Notes: generated by a model from the letters alone, not told the origin. Numbered from the stretch's first letter, positions 7,327-17,879 are shown. The stretch is DNA of 27,256 nt from Candidatus Hodarchaeota archaeon (GCA_016840035.1 JAEOTC010000133.1:1-27256), one strand, 5' to 3'. A program made the numbers and translations.

Positions 7327-8697
7327 TTATTGACCGAGAGTAATAGTATGTCCACGTGTAGGAAGAATTAACGGAATATCTACTATTTCCTTATATTTCT
7401 CTGGGGACTCACTATGAATTGGAATCAACATTTCTGGTGAAATTTCTTCAACAATATCTTTTAAATCATCTCTAGGTGCATGTCCAGAAGCATGAAATTG
7501 TCTGAAATCTAATTTGAAGAATTTAACCCATTCCATCATTCTTTTGTAGTCTATCAGTCCTGATTCAGAGAATGGGTCTCCATGTGAATAGAAATATGTT
7601 GCATTCTGGGGTTGAATATCAATTAAATCAGTCAGATTCCAGAAATCACAATGAAAGATATACTCTTCCTGTTTAAAATCAGAATTTGCTACGATATGAA
7701 TTTCTGGGTTATCTAGGATTTCTTGTTCCCATCGATAATATCTACTTTTCGGACGTTGATAAACTTCAATATTAGGGTCTGTAATCGATGGAATATCTAG
7801 GTTTATATCACCCTGTAGTAATTTCAATAGATGAGCTTGTTTTAAATTGACTAACAGTTTTCTTGAATTCTCCTTTGCTGCATAATAAAAGCTTCTAAAC
7901 CTATCTATATCTCTTAACGTATAATTTGCAATAGCTAGGCCGTCAGTCTTCTCAATAGATTCTGATACATCCCGTTGAACTTGATGTTCATTCTGGTCAA
8001 AATCCTCATCAACATTTGTCCCCTCCATCAGTAAAATTTGTACTCCTTTCTTCTTGGCAATCTGAATAAAGTCAGTAGTTAAATCCTTTCTCCATCCATG
8101 TAACCTTACATCACCTGAATACCCGATTACTAGACCCTCTTTTCGATCTTCAAGAATAAATGCATATGCTCCAGGTATTGAGTGATCTACGTGTATAGGC
8201 GTAATAGTTAATTCCGAAATTTGAATGGTATCTCCTGTACGGAAGGTTCGGATATTTGATGGATTAGTATCTGTTGGAGGTCGAATATAAGGCCTCCCAA
8301 ACCTAGGCCGTGATGTTTGTTGAACAGAGGTCAAAATAGTTTTCGCAGTTTCTCCCATATAGACTGGAATGTCTTCAGATAAAAGATTAATATTTCCATA
8401 GTGATCCATGTGGGCATGAGATAAGAAACACCCTTGAATTGTCTTACTATCTCCTGGAAAGTGGGTATTAAATTCTTGGGCATATAATCCATTAATTTTT
8501 GGTATCATGTCAAATTCTAAGAGGTCGGTTAATCCTTGACTCGTCCTAGGAAGTAGATATCCATCATAATAAATCCCCTCTCTTTTGAAAGATCGTCCAA
8601 AATCAAAGAGAATAGATGTGTCTTTAGCTTCAAAAAGGAAACAATTGCCTCCTATCTCGTCGATACCACCATAAGGTGTGAGTTTCATAATTTTCAC
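7327..8697 (-). CDS. Metallo-beta-lactamase/beta-CASP nuclease, RNase J-like; start likely ATG 8688
   Basis: GGIDEIGGN, DFG, SHAHMDH, VDHS, YSGD, MEGT, HASGHA and IPIHSE motifs. Confidence 0.88.
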   Translation of the reverse strand: MKIMKLTPYGGIDEIGGNCFLFEAKDTSILFDFGRSFKREGIYYDGYLLPRTSQGLTDLLEFDMIPKINGLYAQEFNTHFPGDSKTIQGCFLSHAHMDHYGNINLLSEDIPVYMGETAKTILTSVQQTSRPRFGRPYIRPPTDTNPSNIRTFRTGDTIQISELTITPIHVDHSIPGAYAFILEDRKEGLVIGYSGDVRLHGWRKDLTTDFIQIAKKKGVQILLMEGTNVDEDFDQNEHQVQRDVSESIEKTDGLAIANYTLRDIDRFRSFYYAAKENSRKLLVNLKQAHLLKLLQGDINLDIPSITDPNIEVYQRPKSRYYRWEQEILDNPEIHIVANSDFKQEEYIFHCDFWNLTDLIDIQPQNATYFYSHGDPFSESGLIDYKRMMEWVKFFKLDFRQFHASGHAPRDDLKDIVEEISPEMLIPIHSESPEKYKEIVDIPLILPTRGHTITLGQ

Positions 8698-8721
8698 TTT
8701 GAGTTTATTTTTTCCTGTCTT

Positions 8722-9537
8722 TTACTCGCGTTTTTTGAAGATTAATGCAAAATGGTGATGGACATTGCTCACAAAACTATATGGATAACCATAGGGTCGC
8801 AGGGTTTTCTGATTCTGTAACCAAATTTTCTCACCTAAAAAAACATACCATTTTTTGAGGTGAAGGGGGAGTTCAAAAGCTAAAGGAATCATTTCTCCTT
8901 TGTCTCTCACATTCTGGATAAAGACAATAAGATGTCCACCTCTAGTTAGTAAAGTTTGAATAGTACAAAAAATACTCACCAATTCCTGTAAAAACTCTTT
9001 CTTATCCTCTATCATTCCCAAATCAGATGAATTATGCCCGTATTGAAGATCAAGTCCTTTGTCCAATCTTTCCTGTTGATTATAATCTTTTTTCTTTTTT
9101 AATATACTCCAGTAAGGAGGAGAGGTAATACACAAAGAATATAACTCATTTTCTAATGTAGGTAAAATTTTTCGTAAATCTCCTTCAAGTACAGGGAATT
9201 TAGTTCTTGATTTTGCCGTCTTAGCGTACTTTGAATAGAGTTCGATCCCCAAACCTTCCCTACCGGAGTTTTCACAGGCGACTAGGGTTGATCCTGTCCC
9301 TAAAAATGGATCTAGTACATATTCACCTGGTTTGGTGAAAAATTTGATAAAATCCTCTATCATTGATGGAGGAAACGATGCGGGATGTAAATCAATCTCC
9401 CGTGAAATGTCACTTGGTTTCCCATCAGCAATAAACCACGATTTTGTAAAGCGAATCCACTCTTTCCCTGTAAGTGTGTTGAGTTTATTCCGAGGATCAA
9501 TATTTCCAGAATCTTTCATCGATATCCAATCTCGCAA
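8722..9537 (-). CDS. DNA amino-methyltransferase 1 (SPPY, probable m4C), SAM-binding motifs before the catalytic motif; start likely ATG 9519
   Basis: HPASFP, VLDPFLGTGST and GIEL, followed by ITSPPY. Confidence 0.9.
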   Translation of the reverse strand: MRDWISMKDSGNIDPRNKLNTLTGKEWIRFTKSWFIADGKPSDISREIDLHPASFPPSMIEDFIKFFTKPGEYVLDPFLGTGSTLVACENSGREGLGIELYSKYAKTAKSRTKFPVLEGDLRKILPTLENELYSLCITSPPYWSILKKKKDYNQQERLDKGLDLQYGHNSSDLGMIEDKKEFLQELVSIFCTIQTLLTRGGHLIVFIQNVRDKGEMIPLAFELPLHLKKWYVFLGEKIWLQNQKTLRPYGYPYSFVSNVHHHFALIFKKRE

Positions 9538-9587
9538 TCTATTTTTCTAAGCTAAAATTATATAATAAAAATGTACGGTGTGGAAAC

Positions 9588-10235
9588 ATGTCAAAGCTTC
9601 AGTGTCTGATCTGGGATGTAGATGGTACACTTCTCGATAATACTAATTCAATTATTTCTCTTTTTCAAGATATTGTCATAAAATATCTTGGTGAAGAAAA
9701 AAGTATGACCAAAAAAGAGGTATTGTCATTATGGGGTCCTCCTGGAGATGAAATTTTTAGAAAAGTTTTCCCTCCTGACGTTGTCGATGATGCATGGAAC
9801 GAATTTTTATCAAAATATCGTGAGACCCATACTAAGGAAGGCTTCTTCTCTTCCAATGAATTAAATGCCTTTCGAAAATATGTAAAATATTTAGCAATTT
9901 TTACAGGCAAATCACGCTATACAAATACCATTTCACTTGAGGAACTTGGCATCACAGATTGTTTTGATCTTATTTATACTGGTAGCGATGTTGAAAATTC
10001 AAAACCCTTTCCTGATGCCCTTTTTAGAATTTTAGACGATTTAAAACTGAAACCTGATGAAGTGATTTTTATTGGGGATAGTCATTTGGATGTTCTTGCT
10101 GGAAAAGCTGCTGGAGTCCCTACTGCTGCGGCTAAATGGGGTGCTGTTGAGATAGATAAATTAATACAGAGTAAACCTGATTATGTTTTTGAGACACCAA
10201 AGGAGTTCATTCAGTTTATTAAATCCAGATCATAA
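9588..10235 (+). CDS. HAD-superfamily phosphatase (Gph/PpaX-like)
   Basis: WDVDGTLLD motif I, FTGK, KPFPD and FIGDSHLD motifs. Confidence 0.9.
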   Translation: MSKLQCLIWDVDGTLLDNTNSIISLFQDIVIKYLGEEKSMTKKEVLSLWGPPGDEIFRKVFPPDVVDDAWNEFLSKYRETHTKEGFFSSNELNAFRKYVKYLAIFTGKSRYTNTISLEELGITDCFDLIYTGSDVENSKPFPDALFRILDDLKLKPDEVIFIGDSHLDVLAGKAAGVPTAAAKWGAVEIDKLIQSKPDYVFETPKEFIQFIKSRS

Positions 10236-12395
10236 ATGGGTACTGATTGTATGACTAAAAAATTGATTGAAACCACCTTTCCAATAGTGGAAATAAGTAA
10301 ACTGGCAATACCAGAACGAAGCAGTTATAAACCGATTTATCAGATATCTAAGTGGTTTGCCCGTCGATCCTCATCAATTTTTAGAGCTATACTTCTAGGG
10401 TGTATATTAGACCCATCTGAGAATCTTATGGAACATTTTTACACAACGGAAGATACTTTGAATGAACATGTAATCCTTGATCCATTTATGGGAGGAGGAA
10501 CTAGCATCATAGAGGCTTTAAGGCTTGGAATGAAATGTATAGGAGTAGATATTAATCCTGTTGCTTGGTTTATCACAAAAACTGAGAGTATGATAGTAGA
10601 AACAGAAGAATTACATGAATTAATTTCGACATGTACAGAAAATCTGGAAGCTAAGGTAAAAAAGTGGTATAAAACTTCCTGCCCAGAATGTAAAAGCTCT
10701 GCAGATCTAATCTATACACATTGGGTTAAATGTCTCCCATGTCCAACATGCAGGTCAGTTATTCCACTTTTTCGAAATTTCCTTGTTGGTTATTTAGCAA
10801 ATGAAACCTTCTTGCTCTGTCCTTCATGTTACATGGTTTTTCCCTCAGAAAAACCAGTTGATTCCGAAATCACATGTCCACAGTGTGATACAGGTTTTAA
10901 TGCAAATAGTGGTTACCGAAAAGGGAGAAAGGAGATTGAATGTCCTGAATGTAAGGATTCATTTCAACTGTTAACAGCAATCCAATCTACAAAAGACCCA
11001 CTTGAGAGTAAACCCTATGCTATTGAAGGATTTTGTCCACATTGTGCGAATGAGAAAAACTCTGATTCAAAACTAACAAAATCGAATTTCAAATTTATCA
11101 AAATGGTATCAAGTGATGATTTGGATCTTTATGAAAAAGCAGAAAATCATTGGTTGACCTATTCGAACCAATACCTTTGGCCACAGGAACAAATTCCTTT
11201 AGGGCAGACCACAAAAGTTCTATTGAACCATAATTACACTAAATGGTCTAACCTTTTCAACTCTCGGCAACTACTAACACTAAGTCTGATTATGAGATAT
11301 ATCAGCAATATTAAGGACGATAATGGTCAAGAATTGTTCTTGGCTGCATTTCTTAATCTTCTTAATCATAATAATTGTTTTACGCGATATTCTCCTAAAG
11401 GACAGAAAGTGGAAGGGATATTCTCTCGTCATGATTTCCATCCTCTATCTACATATACTGAAAACAATGTTTGGGGAACTAAATATGGCAGGGGTACTTG
11501 GATAAAGTGCCTTTCAAGATTGTTAAAAGGAAAAGTGTATAACTTACAACCATACAATTTTGAGTATTATCTCGATACAGATAATATTGTCAAACGTCGA
11601 CGGGTAATCGTTGGAAAAATTGATGGAAACGAACATAGGGGGGAAATAAGGGACTTTTCCAAGGCTAACAGTAATGTACTCCTATTATGTCAAGATTCTG
11701 AAGAATTTCCTGAAAACTTCCCAAAAGTAGATTTTCTAATAACTGATCCTCCTTATGCAGATAATGTAAACTATTCTGAATTGTCTGATTTCTTATATGT
11801 TTGGATTAGATTAATATTAAGAAAAAGATACGGTTTTTTTTCGTTAACTGAAACTCCCAAGTCTGGTGAGGCGATAGAAACAAAAAATAGGGATACTGAC
11901 TACTATCAGAAATTATCTAATATTTTTAACAACTGTAGAAGATCTCTTAACCCAGGAGGGCTATTTGTGTTTACTTTTCATCACAGTAGTCCTGATACCT
12001 GGTTCAAGTTATCTCAAGTAATTGAAAACTCAGGATTTAACGTTGTAAAGACTCATACAATACAGAGTGAAGCAATGAATGTATTGAATATTCAGAATAA
12101 GAAAGCAATCTCCTGTGATTTAATAATTGTTTGTCAATCAATGCTTGAGGACACTCGTGAAGAAATTTCATTAAATAAATTCGTGAAAAGATTGAAGAAG
12201 AATTTTCTTGATAAAATTACTTATTATTCAGAAATTGGATTGTCAATTCACGTGAATAACAAGATTGTAGTATTTTTCGGAGAATATTTAGAAATTTTTT
12301 CACGATATCAACCAATTTACAGATCTACACCTGTACCTAGAGATGAACTATGGAAAACTTGTAAAGAACTTCTGGGAAGTTTGAATCCTATATGA
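10236..12395 (+). CDS. DNA methyltransferase 2: large Zn-ribbon adenine MTase (DUF1156/COG1743-like); start may be ATG 10251
   Basis: KWFARR N-terminal motif, ILDPFMGGGT, GVDINP, six CxxC pairs (CPEC, CPTC, CPSC, CPQC, CPEC, CPHC), TDPPYADNVNYSELSDF and FVFTFHH. Confidence 0.88.
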   Translation: MGTDCMTKKLIETTFPIVEISKLAIPERSSYKPIYQISKWFARRSSSIFRAILLGCILDPSENLMEHFYTTEDTLNEHVILDPFMGGGTSIIEALRLGMKCIGVDINPVAWFITKTESMIVETEELHELISTCTENLEAKVKKWYKTSCPECKSSADLIYTHWVKCLPCPTCRSVIPLFRNFLVGYLANETFLLCPSCYMVFPSEKPVDSEITCPQCDTGFNANSGYRKGRKEIECPECKDSFQLLTAIQSTKDPLESKPYAIEGFCPHCANEKNSDSKLTKSNFKFIKMVSSDDLDLYEKAENHWLTYSNQYLWPQEQIPLGQTTKVLLNHNYTKWSNLFNSRQLLTLSLIMRYISNIKDDNGQELFLAAFLNLLNHNNCFTRYSPKGQKVEGIFSRHDFHPLSTYTENNVWGTKYGRGTWIKCLSRLLKGKVYNLQPYNFEYYLDTDNIVKRRRVIVGKIDGNEHRGEIRDFSKANSNVLLLCQDSEEFPENFPKVDFLITDPPYADNVNYSELSDFLYVWIRLILRKRYGFFSLTETPKSGEAIETKNRDTDYYQKLSNIFNNCRRSLNPGGLFVFTFHHSSPDTWFKLSQVIENSGFNVVKTHTIQSEAMNVLNIQNKKAISCDLIIVCQSMLEDTREEISLNKFVKRLKKNFLDKITYYSEIGLSIHVNNKIVVFFGEYLEIFSRYQPIYRSTPVPRDELWKTCKELLGSLNPI

Positions 12396-12401
12396 ATTTG
12401 A

Positions 12402-13187
12402 GTGTGTAGAATGAATCACGAATCTAAATACCAGTTGGTTTTCGGAGATGTCAATGAAACCTTACTTCTGGTAGCTAAGGATAGATTTTTTGATTTAATA
12501 ATTGCTGATCCTCCATTTGGAATTTCTTTTAGTAAATCATCTCACGAATATGGAGCAAGCGATTATCACTTATATAAAGACGATTTTACACCCGAAAATT
12601 ATTATGAGTTTTCTAAAAAATGGATTTCTAATTGTTATAATGCACTCAATCCAACTGGTAGTCTTTACATCATTTCTGGCTGGACTAATCTTCAGTATAT
12701 ACTAAATGCGGTTGAAACAACTGAATTTCACATGCTCAATCATGCTATCTGGCACTTTTCTTGGGGAGTATACACAAAACGACGATTTGTTACAAGTCAT
12801 TATCATATCTTATTACTGGTTAAAAACCCGAAGAAATATCAATTCGTAAAACAGAAACACTACGATGAAGATGTCTTCTTTTGGAAGGAATACAACCGAG
12901 GAAATGATCCACATCGAATAAAAGGGCATCCTTGTCAACTACCAATTGTGCTCCTCGAAAAATTAATCTTAACTTCTAGCTCCGTTGGAGATCTTGTTGG
13001 TGATGTGTTTTCTGGATCTGGAGGAACGATATTAGCCGCACGACGGACTGGGAGAGATGTAATTGGATTTGAATTAAGGGAAGAGTACAAAACAATTATT
13101 GAGGAGAAAGCTTTATTTGGCAAGAAACTAGAGAAAGAATCAGTGACCACTACTCTTGATAAATTTCTAGATAAAGAAGATTCATAA
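12402..13187 (+). CDS. DNA methyltransferase 3: beta-class N4/N6 MTase; start likely ATG 12411
   Basis: Catalytic DLIIADPPF near the N-terminus. HPCQLP, DVFSGSGGT and GFEL lie near the C-terminus. Confidence 0.9.
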   Translation: MCRMNHESKYQLVFGDVNETLLLVAKDRFFDLIIADPPFGISFSKSSHEYGASDYHLYKDDFTPENYYEFSKKWISNCYNALNPTGSLYIISGWTNLQYILNAVETTEFHMLNHAIWHFSWGVYTKRRFVTSHYHILLLVKNPKKYQFVKQKHYDEDVFFWKEYNRGNDPHRIKGHPCQLPIVLLEKLILTSSSVGDLVGDVFSGSGGTILAARRTGRDVIGFELREEYKTIIEEKALFGKKLEKESVTTTLDKFLDKEDS

Positions 13188-13213
13188 ATTCTGTTGGCAG
13201 GAAATATCATTTT

Positions 13214-15007
13214 TCAGAAATTTTTGTCGAATGAAGAGCAATCGTACAGTTTTATAACTATATTATCAATTTCTTCCTTGAATGAATCAGAAGGAATATC
13301 CTTAATGCCATAATTCTGAAATAGCGATTTAATAACACCAATTGTCTTTTCATTTTCTTCAGGAGGACGAATCGGAAGACGTTTTAAGTTTCTAATAGAA
13401 ATGGCATTAGTATACTTCGAGCCAAGATTGAATTGATTCTCATAATACCAATTCATTAGTCGGGAGTTAAGTATGGATACAATATAATAGATATAATCTG
13501 GTTTTTTTCTCCATCTTTCTTTTAACTTGATATTATAAACATTCTGTGTTGTTAGAACATTGTTTAACTCTACTGTAGCACAGGGAAACCGTTTGATTTT
13601 CTGAATGATAATCTTAGGAGATTGATAAAGCTCTTTATTTTTCTTTGATTTAAACTCTATTGAGTCATCGAAGTAATGAGATGATTTTATATAATATTGA
13701 TCGAAATCATCACCAGTTAGAATTGGAATAGTATGATTGGTAGAAATTATTGGGTTAATAAGGTATTTAGTCTTTAAATGACTTTTATCTAAAATTTTAT
13801 GACATTGGGGACACTCAATTCTGGGTTTTCTACTTGACAGAGGAACCCAATAAGTACAGAAGTTGCAATACATCACTCCTCCCCTTTTACTCAATTCTTC
13901 ACCCCGTTGTATTGTCACATATTCCTCTAATGGTTTTGTTTTCTCTTTTATAGAAGAAATTATCTTGTAAGATGTTGGATCAGTTGTTATTGTGAATATA
14001 TAATCAGTATTTGTCAGATAGACTCTCTGTTGAATCGAGTGTTTGTTATTAATTGATATAATGTTGGTCTGCTTTTCCTCATCTGTTAAATGAGCAATTA
14101 GAGTAATGAATTCCTGTGTAACATTCTGGAATAGCTCATGAAAAATTAACGATTTCAATTGATAATTCTCAAGAAGAAACTTCCGTAAATTTACATACTG
14201 ATTTGAACGTGTAAGGTTTTTCGGAAGATAATATGCTAGGGAGCCATCCTTTGGTTTAAGTAAATTAGTACTTTGATAAATAAAAAGTTCAAATGAGTTT
14301 AAATTCCGTCTTGAACCCGATAATTCAAATTTCTCAAAATAGTGACGGCGTTCCTCCTTTGTTAGATGACTTCCCCATGGAGGGTTTCCGATAATGAGAT
14401 CAAATCCTGGGAATTCCTTAGGAATCGCCCTCCATGAAGTTAAATTGCTTTCAAGGAAATTTCCATTTATTACATTAGTCTTTGCCCATTCCTGGACAAA
14501 TTTCCTTTCAATTTTAAAATCATATTTGGATAAGAGTTCATGGCTAACTGTTAGAGTATTTGAATCTAGCTCCATCCCATATAGGTTCCCTAAGAATTGT
14601 TTATTAGGTGTTTCTTGACAATCTTTCCCTAATTCTCTAATTCTTTTGGATATCGATTCAGATATACGACGGAGTATTTCAAATGAAGTAATCAGAAACT
14701 CTCCCTCCCCAACTGAACCATCTAATATTGTTAAATTAGATATGAGACATAATATTGTTTTTAATAGATCAACATCTCTTGAATTAATTATATGTTTTAG
14801 AGAAAGGGAAATTTCACCCCAATCTCGAATTTTTGAGGAGATTATAAACTCTATTGCTTGAGTTGTTAGTTCAGATGCGAGTTTGTTCGGTGTATAGAAA
14901 GCACCATAAGTTTTTTGGAAATTATTTTTCTCTACTGGAGACATACTCGGACTACCTATAGGAGCTTTCTTATTTCGAAAGTTGAATGCTATTTTGACAT
15001 ACGACAC
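13214..15007 (-). CDS. DNA methyltransferase 4: gamma-class N6-adenine MTase (TaqI/Eco57I-like) with C-terminal target-recognition domain; start likely ATG 14944
   Basis: GAFYTP, ILDGSVGEGEFL, LYGMELD, GNFL and FDLIIGNPPW. The TRD region has PKIIIQKI and ILNSRLMNWYY...LKRLPI, plus a CxxC..CxxC insertion. Confidence 0.9.
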   Translation of the reverse strand: MSYVKIAFNFRNKKAPIGSPSMSPVEKNNFQKTYGAFYTPNKLASELTTQAIEFIISSKIRDWGEISLSLKHIINSRDVDLLKTILCLISNLTILDGSVGEGEFLITSFEILRRISESISKRIRELGKDCQETPNKQFLGNLYGMELDSNTLTVSHELLSKYDFKIERKFVQEWAKTNVINGNFLESNLTSWRAIPKEFPGFDLIIGNPPWGSHLTKEERRHYFEKFELSGSRRNLNSFELFIYQSTNLLKPKDGSLAYYLPKNLTRSNQYVNLRKFLLENYQLKSLIFHELFQNVTQEFITLIAHLTDEEKQTNIISINNKHSIQQRVYLTNTDYIFTITTDPTSYKIISSIKEKTKPLEEYVTIQRGEELSKRGGVMYCNFCTYWVPLSSRKPRIECPQCHKILDKSHLKTKYLINPIISTNHTIPILTGDDFDQYYIKSSHYFDDSIEFKSKKNKELYQSPKIIIQKIKRFPCATVELNNVLTTQNVYNIKLKERWRKKPDYIYYIVSILNSRLMNWYYENQFNLGSKYTNAISIRNLKRLPIRPPEENEKTIGVIKSLFQNYGIKDIPSDSFKEEIDNIVIKLYDCSSFDKNF

Positions 15008-17879
15008 AAGTTTCCTGTGAAATTAACCATTCTTCAAGGTGCTCTTTATGATAGGCTTGATTACAAATCGGGCAATGAAGAAGAAGATTATCCCTCTTTG
15101 TATCTTCTAGGCATAAAATACATCGATTCGGCATTACTTCAACATTGAATTCTTGATTCTTTTCAGCTTCTACCAAATTTAATTTTGAAAACTTAGTTTG
15201 GATTGTTTTTAATCTTGAATCTATTTTAATTTCCCTCTTTCTAGTTGATGACTCATGTTTAATAAAAATTACCGATCCATGGGTTTGTATATGGTTGTAT
15301 AAATCTTTAAAGAGAGGAATCGAACCTTTACTTGGGATATTACCAACAATTATCATTTTTTTCTTTGCTCTTGTAAGTGCAACATTCAATCTACGCTCAT
15401 CTTCAAGTAAATGTGGAGAATTAAGAGTACATAACGATAAAATGATGACTTCCTTATCTGATCCTTGAAATCGGTCAATAGTATCAACTATTACCTCAGA
15501 ATTGTCTTTTAAACCTCTTCTAATTTCAGCTACTTGTCCCCTAAAGGGAGCAATAACTCCCAGACAATTTGGCGGGGTTCCTAAGTCTAACAATTCATCT
15601 ACTAGCTGTTTAATTACACGGACTTCTCCTAAATTTACCCGACGATTACGATTAAATTCAGTATTCACACCTGCATATACAAGGGGTTGGTTTGGATCTA
15701 AAATTGATTGCATAAGCTGATTTTTATTAGAAAGGTCAATTTGAGTAGGTAATAGGCTCCAAAGTAGTTGATTTGCAACCGAATCATTAATTGCTTTTAC
15801 TTTACCTTCATAATATCGTTGATTACTAAAATTCATTAATTCCTTATTCATTCGATATTGAAATCTTAAAAGAACATTAGAATCAGGGTATTTTTGTTTC
15901 AAACGTAAGAATAGACTTGTTCCCAATCCTTGGGTTTCTGCTTGTCGACTCTGAACCAATGGAGGTAGTTGTTTATCATCCCCTACAAGTATGAATTTTT
16001 CTCCTTTTGCAATTGCTGATAGCAAATATGGTTCAGCCATCTGTGTAGCTTCGTCTACGATTACTACATCAAAATATAGATCATCATAAATACTTTTACT
16101 TATAGTACTTGTCGTAGCAGCAATTATTGGCACTTCAGTAAGCTCTTGGTATGAATGTTTTTGATTTTTTAACAAATATGGTGTTACGACAGAATTAACA
16201 GAGGCCTCAATCCCTAATCGGGTGATTTGATCCTCTTTACTCTTTAATCGGGAGTTTTTCATGTGTGTAACTAATATATTGTCTACAGCAGTATTAGTAT
16301 ACGAGGTTAAAAGAATAGACTTTCTTTTTTTTCGGAATTCATCAATTAGCTTGGAAATTGTGTACGTTTTACCTGTACCGGCAGGTCCCTGTATTAAACA
16401 ATAGTCTTTCGCATCTATTGACTTTTGAATTGCTGCAAGCTGAGATTCATCAACATCCTCAATATCAATTTTTTCTATCCCTTCATATTGGGGTTTAACT
16501 CCTTCTATTATCAATTTATGAGTTTTATGACTCGATTTCAAGCCTACTGATAATTCAAATAAATTTTTGTTCAATCTTCGAAAATTAAAGTCTGAGGAAT
16601 AGCTATCGAGGAAGGAACTAGGTGGGATTGGATTATAACTTCTAATGGTGACGGAAGATTGGTTAATCGAGGTGATGGTTGCTACCATGGTTTTGTCAGT
16701 TGTTGGATTACCATTGCTGAGTATTACTGGTTCTCCAGGTTTCAATTCCGAATGATTCTTACATTTGAAGGTATGTTGATTATTCTTTGAATACTCTGAT
16801 AAGAGGCCTGAAATTGCTTTTCCAAGTTTGATTCTACCATTCGGATTCAATTTCCATAGAATGGAGAACTCTTGACGATTTTTCAAATGCTCTAGACGTA
16901 ATAATGAAATAAAATGCTTGAAGTAGTTATAGGCTTTACTTGATTTCCCCTGCTCTAATTCATCAAACAGATTACATATCTCTTTTACAAAACAATATCT
17001 ACAAGCTGATATCTTAATAGTTGGAGGAAGATAATCCTCGTATTGGAACATGTAACAGTAATTCCTTGCCACATGAATATTCTGTAATAACTGATTATCG
17101 ATGGTTGTCACCCTATATGAAGGGACCCCTAATCCAGAATATATGACATATGATTTTTTTACAGCCTTTTCAGGAGAAGAGCTTAATCCGTGCATGTAAA
17201 TTAAAGTTTGATATAAATCTGATGGCCATGTATTTATCTCTATAGAGGGAATTCTTTTACCAGTCTTAAGTTCATAGAGCTCCCCTTTTGTCCAGAAATC
17301 TATACGTCCCATTACTCCATATAACGGAGAGAGAAATGTCATTTCTGGAATTACATCTACTTTCTTCCATTCTTCTGCAGATTGAGCCAAACCATTGAGG
17401 ACTGGTGTTATTTCTTCCCTTAATTCCTTTATATTTACACCAAGGTATGAGAGCTGAAATTGATATTGTTGAATTATTCGGTTTCTTGCTTCTTGGATAG
17501 TTGTATTATGGGAGACTAATAACGAAAAAATGTCATGAATAATTAAACCTCGGACCATTGGTAAAGTAGGTTTTGTCTCCCCCCTTATAAATTGCAGGTA
17601 ACTCTGTCTCGGACAAACATGAGCACTTGCGATAGCTCGTGAGTTAACTAGAATATTTGGATTAATGATTATGAGTGTATCAGGAGTAGTTTCATACTCT
17701 CCTTCTTCAATGTAAAAAGGGTCAATGATTCGGATCTGGGTAAGATAAGCAAGTTTGGAAAAAGGAACATATATCCAAGGTTTATTCAACCTTAATATAA
17801 GAGCTTGTTGAGCATGATTATCAAACAACTCTATAGTTCCGTTCTTACGGTTCAAAAAGAGAGTATTCAAGATAGCCAT
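14970..17879 (-). CDS. dna2: Dna2-like Fe-S nuclease / SF1 helicase with C-terminal RING-like zinc finger
   Basis: Nuclease: CPR, RGLIIH, E..GRID..ELKTG, QTLIY and CRYCxxxxxC. Helicase: QGPAGTGKT, SYTNTAVD, VDEATQ, LVGDDKQLPP, QYRMN, IAPFRGQ, TIDRFQGSDK and RLNVALTRAK. C-terminus: Cx2C-x12-Cx2C-x4-Hx2H-x3-W-x6-Cx2C. Confidence 0.88.
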   Translation of the reverse strand: MAILNTLFLNRKNGTIELFDNHAQQALILRLNKPWIYVPFSKLAYLTQIRIIDPFYIEEGEYETTPDTLIIINPNILVNSRAIASAHVCPRQSYLQFIRGETKPTLPMVRGLIIHDIFSLLVSHNTTIQEARNRIIQQYQFQLSYLGVNIKELREEITPVLNGLAQSAEEWKKVDVIPEMTFLSPLYGVMGRIDFWTKGELYELKTGKRIPSIEINTWPSDLYQTLIYMHGLSSSPEKAVKKSYVIYSGLGVPSYRVTTIDNQLLQNIHVARNYCYMFQYEDYLPPTIKISACRYCFVKEICNLFDELEQGKSSKAYNYFKHFISLLRLEHLKNRQEFSILWKLNPNGRIKLGKAISGLLSEYSKNNQHTFKCKNHSELKPGEPVILSNGNPTTDKTMVATITSINQSSVTIRSYNPIPPSSFLDSYSSDFNFRRLNKNLFELSVGLKSSHKTHKLIIEGVKPQYEGIEKIDIEDVDESQLAAIQKSIDAKDYCLIQGPAGTGKTYTISKLIDEFRKKRKSILLTSYTNTAVDNILVTHMKNSRLKSKEDQITRLGIEASVNSVVTPYLLKNQKHSYQELTEVPIIAATTSTISKSIYDDLYFDVVIVDEATQMAEPYLLSAIAKGEKFILVGDDKQLPPLVQSRQAETQGLGTSLFLRLKQKYPDSNVLLRFQYRMNKELMNFSNQRYYEGKVKAINDSVANQLLWSLLPTQIDLSNKNQLMQSILDPNQPLVYAGVNTEFNRNRRVNLGEVRVIKQLVDELLDLGTPPNCLGVIAPFRGQVAEIRRGLKDNSEVIVDTIDRFQGSDKEVIILSLCTLNSPHLLEDERRLNVALTRAKKKMIIVGNIPSKGSIPLFKDLYNHIQTHGSVIFIKHESSTRKREIKIDSRLKTIQTKFSKLNLVEAEKNQEFNVEVMPNRCILCLEDTKRDNLLLHCPICNQAYHKEHLEEWLISQETCVVCQNSIQLSK

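Follow-up and report, generated by a model that had tools for sequence, protein, structure and literature searches.

A conserved neighbourhood of four candidate persistent orphan DNA methyltransferases in a Hodarchaeales genus

The 27,256-nucleotide stretch of DNA analysed here (the window) is a whole contig, C85, of G000, a 4.3 Mb metagenome-assembled genome (MAG) that is 87% complete. Its host, a Hodarchaeales archaeon, belongs to the Asgard archaea, the group related to eukaryotes. Within the window lie seven genes that encode four amino-methyltransferases (MTase1 to MTase4), a HAD-family phosphatase, a beta-CASP nuclease and a Dna2-like nuclease-helicase that ends in a RING finger (Dna2-RING; Table 1). 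All seven open reading frames (ORFs) are real and have intact catalytic motifs, with family and domain calls made by Pfam, PADLOC and NCBIfam profiles plus motif order. An initial annotation had described them as an island of tightly packed genes in three units with gaps of at most about 70 nt, and the ORFs, strands and spacing bear out the packing: on the longest ORFs the intergenic gaps are, in gene order, 24, 50, 0, 6, 26 and -38 nt, and with the starts shifted by orthologue alignments (MTase1 to about 9519, MTase2 to 10251, MTase3 to 12411 and MTase4 to about 14944) every gap still lies below 70 nt. In agreement with the same annotation, no restriction endonuclease (REase) of type II or other kind, HsdR/Res, DUF499, SNF2, PglZ, integrase or transposase was recognised by Pfam, PADLOC or NCBIfam in the seven genes or the scanned neighbours.

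Table 1. Genes of the methyltransferase locus and the tail motif of MTase3, in window coordinates
Feature	Position	Strand	Basis
beta-CASP metallo-beta-lactamase nuclease	7327-8697	-	Pfam Lactamase_B_2 + RMMBL
MTase1, N6/N4 amino-MTase	8722-9537	-	PF01555; PADLOC MTase_II PDLC03391
HAD-family phosphatase	9588-10235	+	HAD_2; NCBIfam PpaX/Gph-like, under both cut-offs
MTase2, DUF1156/COG1743-like amino-MTase	10236-12395	+	Pfam, PADLOC, NCBIfam
MTase3, beta-class amino-MTase	12402-13187	+	Pfam, fold matches
PIP-box-like motif, MTase3 residues 249-256	13146-13169	+	conserved C-terminal tail
MTase4, gamma-class m6A-type MTase	13214-15007	-	Eco57I + TaqI_C (Pfam)
Dna2-RING nuclease-helicase	14970-17879	-	PF08696, AAA_11/12, zf-RING_2

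The four MTases differ in architecture, as had been noted before and as the three profile collections and the motif order agree. They were compared across 21 congeneric genomes (the kin), which are MAGs rather than closed genomes; the ratios of nonsynonymous to synonymous substitution (dN/dS) given here are rough, with dS near saturation. In MTase1 motif I (residues 76-82) precedes SPPY (139-142), the motifs are invariant, orthologues are 64-87% identical across the kin and dN/dS is 0.095; from its motif type the product is probably N4-methylcytosine (m4C). MTase2 (719 aa; dN/dS 0.17) carries motif I at 82-88, a Cys-rich Zn-ribbon insert and DPPY at 504-507, and its structural model is confident (predicted local distance difference test, pLDDT, 88), with a fold search giving generic matches to S-adenosylmethionine (SAM)-dependent MTases only and no close solved structure. 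MTase3 has DPPF (36-39) before motif I (201-207) and the fold of CcrM, M.BceJIV and M.RsrI; with 71-89% identity across the kin and a dN/dS of 0.092 it is the most conserved of the four, and its putative target-recognition region reaches a conservation of 0.90-0.94. MTase4 (dN/dS 0.22) combines motif I (96-102) and NPPW (208-211) with a TaqI-like recognition domain at the C-terminus, in which a Cys4 ribbon lies. Only about 75-95 residues lie ahead of its motif I, too short an N-terminus for a nuclease domain, and MTase4 is thus not a IIG enzyme with a fused nuclease. No orthologue of it was found in other families of the class at 1e-20. The families of this class survey are denoted by f-numbers; f4 is a Heimdallarchaeia family other than the host's. 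A relative of MTase3 (40-50% identity, about 240-350 aa), mostly single-copy, is near-universal in several Asgard families (f4, f7 and f11; for example 70/76 in f11) and would be a candidate for a persistent MTase at phylum level. In family f27, too, HAD genes stand beside an MTase1-like gene and a gamma MTase (inspected loci, numbered with L, L121:6355-13543 and L122:6875-13265), the gamma MTase being only tentatively comparable to MTase4. Phage and plasmid homologues provided no usable specificity, and no motif is assigned in the paper on the Haloferax lucentense plasmid that carries a 48% identical homologue of MTase1.

The order MTase1-HAD-MTase2-MTase3-MTase4 is kept in 20 loci of the kin, which form the synteny set, within a longer block of ordinary genes. 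On one side the block comprises a Cu-ATPase, a PPDK-like gene, an AAA-HTH gene, a membrane protein and the beta-CASP gene, and on the other YdjM, AlaX, a CoA-disulfide reductase and RidA. Contrary to the initial proposal, the locus is not an island, since these flanking genes are co-conserved and its GC (0.32-0.36) and GC3 match theirs and those of the genome (0.36). Linkage in related genomes, which had been named as a test, was found for the MTases and the HAD gene in most kin; Dna2-RING is missing in 11 of the 21 genomes and beta-CASP is moved or missing in some. The HAD gene, the first of the predicted HAD-MTase2-MTase3 unit (dN/dS 0.21), adjoins MTase1 in all 15 kin loci of the synteny set that show MTase1 and stands apart from it in one further locus (L100). 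No evidence was found for its suggested role as a repair enzyme, and we regard it as a predicted, conserved operon neighbour only. Various genes have been inserted into kin loci, among them cupin, TrxB-like, CheR/CheD, TPR, NosD, IS605 transposase and metabolic genes.

Orthologues of MTase1 and of MTase4 are each present in 20 of the 21 kin, MTase3 in 18 as a full and in one as a partial gene, and MTase2 in 13 as a full and in five as a partial gene. The dN/dS of the four MTases (0.09-0.22) compares with 0.05-0.26 for the flanking genes, and the catalytic motifs are invariant. The gene trees, examined for vertical inheritance, are largely congruent with those of the neighbours: those of MTase3 and MTase4 recover the best-supported clades of the AlaX and Dna2 trees, deeper nodes not being resolved, and the distances of the MTases correlate with those of housekeeping neighbours at 0.58-0.88. 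The recognition regions show no diversification and match the catalytic cores in conservation, which suggests fixed target motifs. With an occurrence above 75%, purifying selection and vertical inheritance, and no endonuclease gene at the locus, the four predicted enzymes fit the published definition of persistent orphan MTases, for which an orthologue in at least 75% of a taxon is the criterion (PMC10609329).

MTase3 carries a further conserved element. Outside its CcrM-like catalytic fold a C-terminal tail (pLDDT 51-56) resembles a PCNA-interacting peptide (PIP). All 61 MTase3 homologues of Hodarchaeales end, after a variable linker, in L-[DE]-x-[YF]-[LF] or a near variant; the Leu and the aromatic residue are invariant (61/61), a Gln stands ahead in 30/61 and the last position is mostly Leu. 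Among distant MTase3 homologues the tail occurs in 9 of 59, and those of the nine that have names are Asgard. Such endings are found in 3.5% of G000 proteins, and MTase1, MTase2 and MTase4 are without one. Three more beta-class MTases of G000 have PIP-like tails (C59:6155-7081, C174:3955-5100 and C292:35840-36637). The MTase3 tail is near the archaeal consensus PIP peptide, and like most archaeal PIPs it is C-terminal (PMC4929162, PMC6881253). A model of the complex between this tail and the PCNA of G000 scored 0.76, compared to 0.02 for the best of three controls. Of 80 solved complexes 58 reach the mark passed here, and of 110 mismatched pairs 2; with the own alignments used for this model the two counts are rough. 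At least 70% of the contacts agree between runs, the partner has a pLDDT of 53 or more, and Leu and Phe are placed in the canonical pocket. As modelled, the tail probably hooks MTase3 onto PCNA. Fen1 could not serve as an in-genome PIP control because no archaeal match to it was found in G000, as far as this 87% complete genome goes.

Together these observations make it likely, in our view, that the locus is a conserved neighbourhood of four independently acquired, domesticated and persistent orphan DNA amino-MTases in a Hodarchaeales genus. If expressed, each MTase would probably use SAM to methylate its own fixed motif in host DNA (m4C or N6-methyladenine, m6A), and MTase3, tethered to PCNA via its PIP-like tail as the model suggests, would probably re-methylate new DNA behind the fork. 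The outcome would be a stable methylome across the lineage. We give roughly even weight to self-protection against restriction enzymes on incoming elements as the main benefit, and appreciably less to a replication or gene-regulatory role as a second one. After a codon-shuffle control several palindromes, GGCC foremost, are less avoided in the genus than in families f4 and f6, in small samples, a weak hint that the MTases may have a protective role. Dna2-RING and the beta-CASP RNase would be separate nucleic-acid housekeeping genes sharing predicted transcription units with the MTases. Of the housekeeping or replication-coupled methylation module put forward in the initial annotation, the part concerning the MTases is supported by their persistence, the purifying selection on them, the broad agreement of their trees and the PIP-like tail of MTase3. 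A single module of all seven genes is not, since Dna2-RING was lost repeatedly while the MTases stayed and both nucleases occur without MTase neighbours in another family.

Several observations weigh against this interpretation. In the G000 copy of the MTase3 tail Thr replaces the canonical Gln, and the pass of the PCNA model may stem from a likeness to the many solved PIP-PCNA complexes. Clamp-like tails also occur on MTases of bacterial RM (restriction-modification)-like cassettes, so the tail is no proof of a housekeeping or regulatory role. Type II REases are hard to detect, and PADLOC and Pfam missed the nuclease-like genes of those same cassettes. Apart from an AT-rich one, no significant intergenic motif cluster was found, and hence no support for origin control. 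MTase2 has been lost in two kin (G060 and G061), with unrelated genes in its place, and the cluster is split in two others (G051 and G056), which indicates that the cluster is not essential as a unit. In G056 (1.39 Mb, single contig; L124 and L035) the break falls within MTase2/MTase3, and rearrangement or misassembly has put about 870 kb between the two parts. The bacterial cassettes, found in two MAGs (L107:4791-9545 and L108:1092-5794), consist of MTase1-like and MTase2-like methylases in tandem with two PD-(D/E)xK-looking genes that have no Pfam or PADLOC match, the second MTase ending in a bacterial clamp-like motif. Each cassette is probably a two-MTase, two-subunit RM system.

A stronger claim is that MTase3 rides PCNA and copies its mark after replication, convergent with DNMT1, and that the marks regulate replication or expression beyond shielding. 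We regard this claim as possible though doubtful. DNMT1 is an unrelated C5 enzyme, and its parallel with MTase3 would be an analogy, not homology.

It appears improbable that the four MTases supply the modification activity of ordinary RM systems, the matching endonucleases being encoded at other sites of the genome and overlooked by profile searches. The poor detectability of Type II REases, reported previously (PMC10609329) and evident from our own control with the two bacterial cassettes, would allow for it, as would the tandem arrangement of MTase1- and MTase2-like genes with nuclease-like genes in these cassettes, the incompleteness of G000 and two weak Mrr_cat matches in it. CCGG is also strongly depleted, with an observed to expected ratio (O/E) of 0.52, and of 0.26-0.37 after codon control in the coding DNA of G000 and kin. 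In the same coding DNA GGWCC is depleted and GCCCGC has an O/E of 0.42, and GGCC is enriched in the genus (1.15-1.29) and depleted in families f4 and f6 (0.50-0.55). Such k-mer bias was discarded as a guide to targets because the CCGG and GGCC biases cannot be tied to a gene. Against hidden endonucleases stand the searches for restriction genes: no HSDR_N or Methylase_S (HsdR/HsdS) was found in G000, in a search that did not extend to Res genome-wide, and the 22 genomes of the genus gave only two weak HSDR_N matches. No homologue of the nuclease-like proteins of the bacterial cassettes was found in G000, and among the 77 neighbours of 29 other MTases of G000, most of them housekeeping genes, no REase was recognised. 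An REase_II model (PDLC03398) has a single match near another MTase; the protein is an HhH-GPD glycosylase, and the model has matches in 13 of 14 control genomes. Complete persistent RM systems are moreover rare, a complete Type II system making up only one of 29 archaeal persistent groups (PMC10609329).

The initial annotation had also raised the reading that Dna2 and beta-CASP replace the REase, so that Dna2-RING, on the same predicted transcript as MTase4, and/or beta-CASP would destroy unmethylated foreign nucleic acid. This we consider very unlikely. Dna2-RING has four Fe-S cysteines, a PD-(D/E)xK site and SF1 helicase motifs conserved in 10/10 orthologues, with PF08696 above cut-off. In the ten of 21 kin that have it, it always lies at this locus upstream of MTase4, which would suit an effector. 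Ten of the 11 kin without it keep MTases, and its absence was confirmed by a family search in four 91-96% complete genomes, one of them a single contig (96%), that keep all four MTases. The losses are scattered on the MTase4 tree and imply at least four events, and we take Dna2-RING to be an ancestral upstream neighbour of MTase4 that was repeatedly deleted. A patchy effector beside a persistent MTase resembles a decaying RM system, and loss of the effector alone fits that picture too; defence proteins, Prometheus and Mokosh among them, can also have Dna2-like domains, and the Haloferax lucentense plasmid homologue of MTase1 (L091:5929-10944) is followed by a UvrD helicase and then a 462-aa gene. 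In the other direction, Dna2-RING is present in 31 of 31 genomes of family f4, which give no MTase4 match, and has no MTase neighbour in any of 15 inspected loci of families f3, f4 and f6. Its best structural match is the replicative eukaryotic DNA2 (E 1.5e-61), in line with the reported relation of Asgard Dna2 homologues to eukaryotic Dna2 (PMC12680538), and it has no recognisable sequence-recognition domain. The RING finger at its C-terminus (window:14970-15125; L051-L066) is found in 24/24 full-length Heimdallarchaeia homologues listed and suggests that a possible ubiquitin ligase domain is fused to the nuclease-helicase.

The beta-CASP nuclease is separable too. It has metallo-beta-lactamase motifs 1-4, motifs A and B and a motif-C His (His428) in 14/14 orthologues, and His rather than Val at motif C marks an RNA-type beta-CASP (PMC3095777). 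Its best structural match is EF2904 (2az4; E 1.5e-29), followed by RNase J; identity as a canonical RNase J or aCPSF1 was rejected, both being under NCBIfam cut-offs. Full orthologues are present in 19 of the 21 kin, with a fragment in G055 and none found in G048, the gene has moved in G060 and G061, and in seven f4 loci it stands without MTase neighbours. We therefore describe it as a usual, not obligate, predicted neighbour of MTase1. The PADLOC search that the initial annotation had proposed gave, like NCBIfam, only generic MTase_II and helicase matches at the locus and no defence system over cut-off. Given the Dna2 losses, the MTase-free occurrence of both nucleases and the RNA-type His, a Dna2/beta-CASP defence system is unsupported.

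The clustering could instead be a by-product of MTase-rich genomes, frozen by slow rearrangement, with some of the enzymes weakly active or silent. G000 has one C5 MTase and about 34 amino-MTase-like ORFs, with one or two possible RNA enzymes among the latter; its total of at least 33 DNA MTase-like genes is a lower bound, with the D12/Dam family lying outside the search. Hodarchaeales genomes have 8-30 Eco57I-type matches each (3 in one small genome) compared to 0-8 in other Heimdallarchaeia, and we read the window as a dense instance of an MTase expansion that spans the lineage. The existence of a second MTase cluster and the free insertion of unrelated genes agree with a by-product, which as regards gene order is compatible with domesticated persistent orphans. 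Silent relics would hardly show such strong purifying selection in their catalytic and recognition regions, and four MTases in 6.3 kb are denser than in the other clusters seen in G000, which leaves this explanation a slim chance. The second cluster, of one gamma and two DUF1156-like MTases, is conserved in all three kin inspected, and its DUF1156-like pair occurs genus-wide (L071, which is G000:C13:65081-69957, L077 and L126-L128); in G000 a thymidine kinase sits between the C13 pair, and there is an extra copy of one DUF1156-like paralogue. In another part of G000 (L075:4949-6070, on C111) a 373-aa protein with an N-terminal histone-fold match is encoded directly downstream of a gamma MTase. 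No more credible is that MTase1 and/or MTase3 methylate RNA and that MTase1 matures RNA together with the RNase encoded in the same orientation. In favour are the conservation at housekeeping level, the shared orientation of the MTase1 and beta-CASP genes in most kin and the existence of archaeal RNA m4C enzymes with the MTase1/MTase3 fold. On the other side, the close matches in sequence and fold are without exception DNA MTases, neither a THUMP nor a PUA domain was found, the MTase3 tail points to DNA and beta-CASP lies apart from MTase1 in several genomes.

Elsewhere in the window, a Cys/His-rich metal-binding-like unit occurs as two repeats at the N-terminus of the Cu-ATPase (window:416-545), ahead of the usual HMA domain. 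A small GTPase-like gene, a Cys-containing 133-aa gene and a gene for a 961-aa protein (window:22925-26911) are 80-92% identical in a close relative (L033).

With four domesticated persistent orphans as the preferred explanation, the methylase set moves from a new defence system to an undescribed persistent set whose enzymes are named and testable. The literature searched, which included few subscription papers, gave no description of persistent MTases or an MTase expansion in Hodarchaeales, or of PIP-tailed MTases, including any archaeal PIP-bearing DNA MTase. The set bears on the question of Asgard DNA methylation beyond restriction and its coupling to the replisome; in published Asgard methylomes many motifs are unassigned (PMC11529989). 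A dense methylome would matter for the delivery of DNA into these organisms and for methylation-based binning.

Among known systems, Type I and Type III RM were set aside because HsdR/Res and HsdS are absent from the locus, and Type II or IIG RM because it has no REase and MTase4 no fused nuclease domain. Dna2-RING gives helicase-only partial matches to Mokosh, Prometheus and Hhe components (ProA 81 of 1500, Hhe 60 of 2000 and PLuB 257 of 999 bits), and membership in these systems was likewise rejected. It shares with eukaryotic DNA2 and its Asgard homologues an Fe-S PD-(D/E)xK nuclease fused to an SF1 helicase (PMC12680538), and differs in its C-terminal RING, which is kept across the Heimdallarchaeia homologues seen, and in being dispensable in half of the genus. 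MTase2 resembles the DUF1156 MTases of DUF499-centred BREX-related systems, HmaB and PglXI (PMC12839542) in its split fold, in a large insertion that follows motif I and in matching DUF1156, if weakly; it is shorter than these (719 compared to about 950-970 aa) and scores 144 bits against a cut-off of 1000. The locus contains no DUF499/BrxC ATPase, SNF2, PglZ or DrmAB and by these features does not belong to BREX, DISARM, Hma or DUF499-centred systems. A lone diverged DUF499-like protein is encoded at the same site in seven inspected kin and G000 (L129:9651-12320, L130:5814-8402 and G000:C117:46583); as a hidden partner of MTase2 it was rejected, since it lies 45-80 kb off in two genomes, is convergent with uvrC and has no MTase or SNF2 neighbours, and no SNF2 was found in G000.

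The closest likenesses are to orphan MTases. MTase3 shares fold and motif order with CcrM, M.BceJIV and M.RsrI and is conserved like a regulatory orphan, yet it is only about 25% identical to this group, lacks the CcrM C-terminal domain, falls under the NCBIfam CcrM cut-off and has the PIP-like tail. Like the archaeal C-terminal PIP clients Fen1, RFC, NucS and NreA (PMC4929162), it has a hydrophobic-x-x-aromatic motif on a flexible tail that is modelled in the canonical pocket, with the difference that the putative client is here an N6/N4 DNA MTase. Cenarchaeum symbiosum, with 22 Type II MTases that are mostly orphan (PMC10609329), similarly combines many orphan MTases of differing specificity with few REases, whereas here the load is higher (at least 33), order-wide and partly fixed in conserved clusters. 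Persistent archaeal orphans of Type II include HG1 (CTAG, m4C, in Halobacteria), HG3 (GATC) and HG11/16/19 (AGCT), in a survey that covered one Asgard genome and in which Hodarchaeales were outside the coverage (Anton and Roberts 2023, PMC10609329). As in those groups, the MTases described here are solitary amino-MTases, vertically inherited in at least 75% of a taxon and without an REase. Unlike them, they bring four unrelated classes, including a DUF1156-like and a gamma/TaqI-like enzyme, together in one locus.

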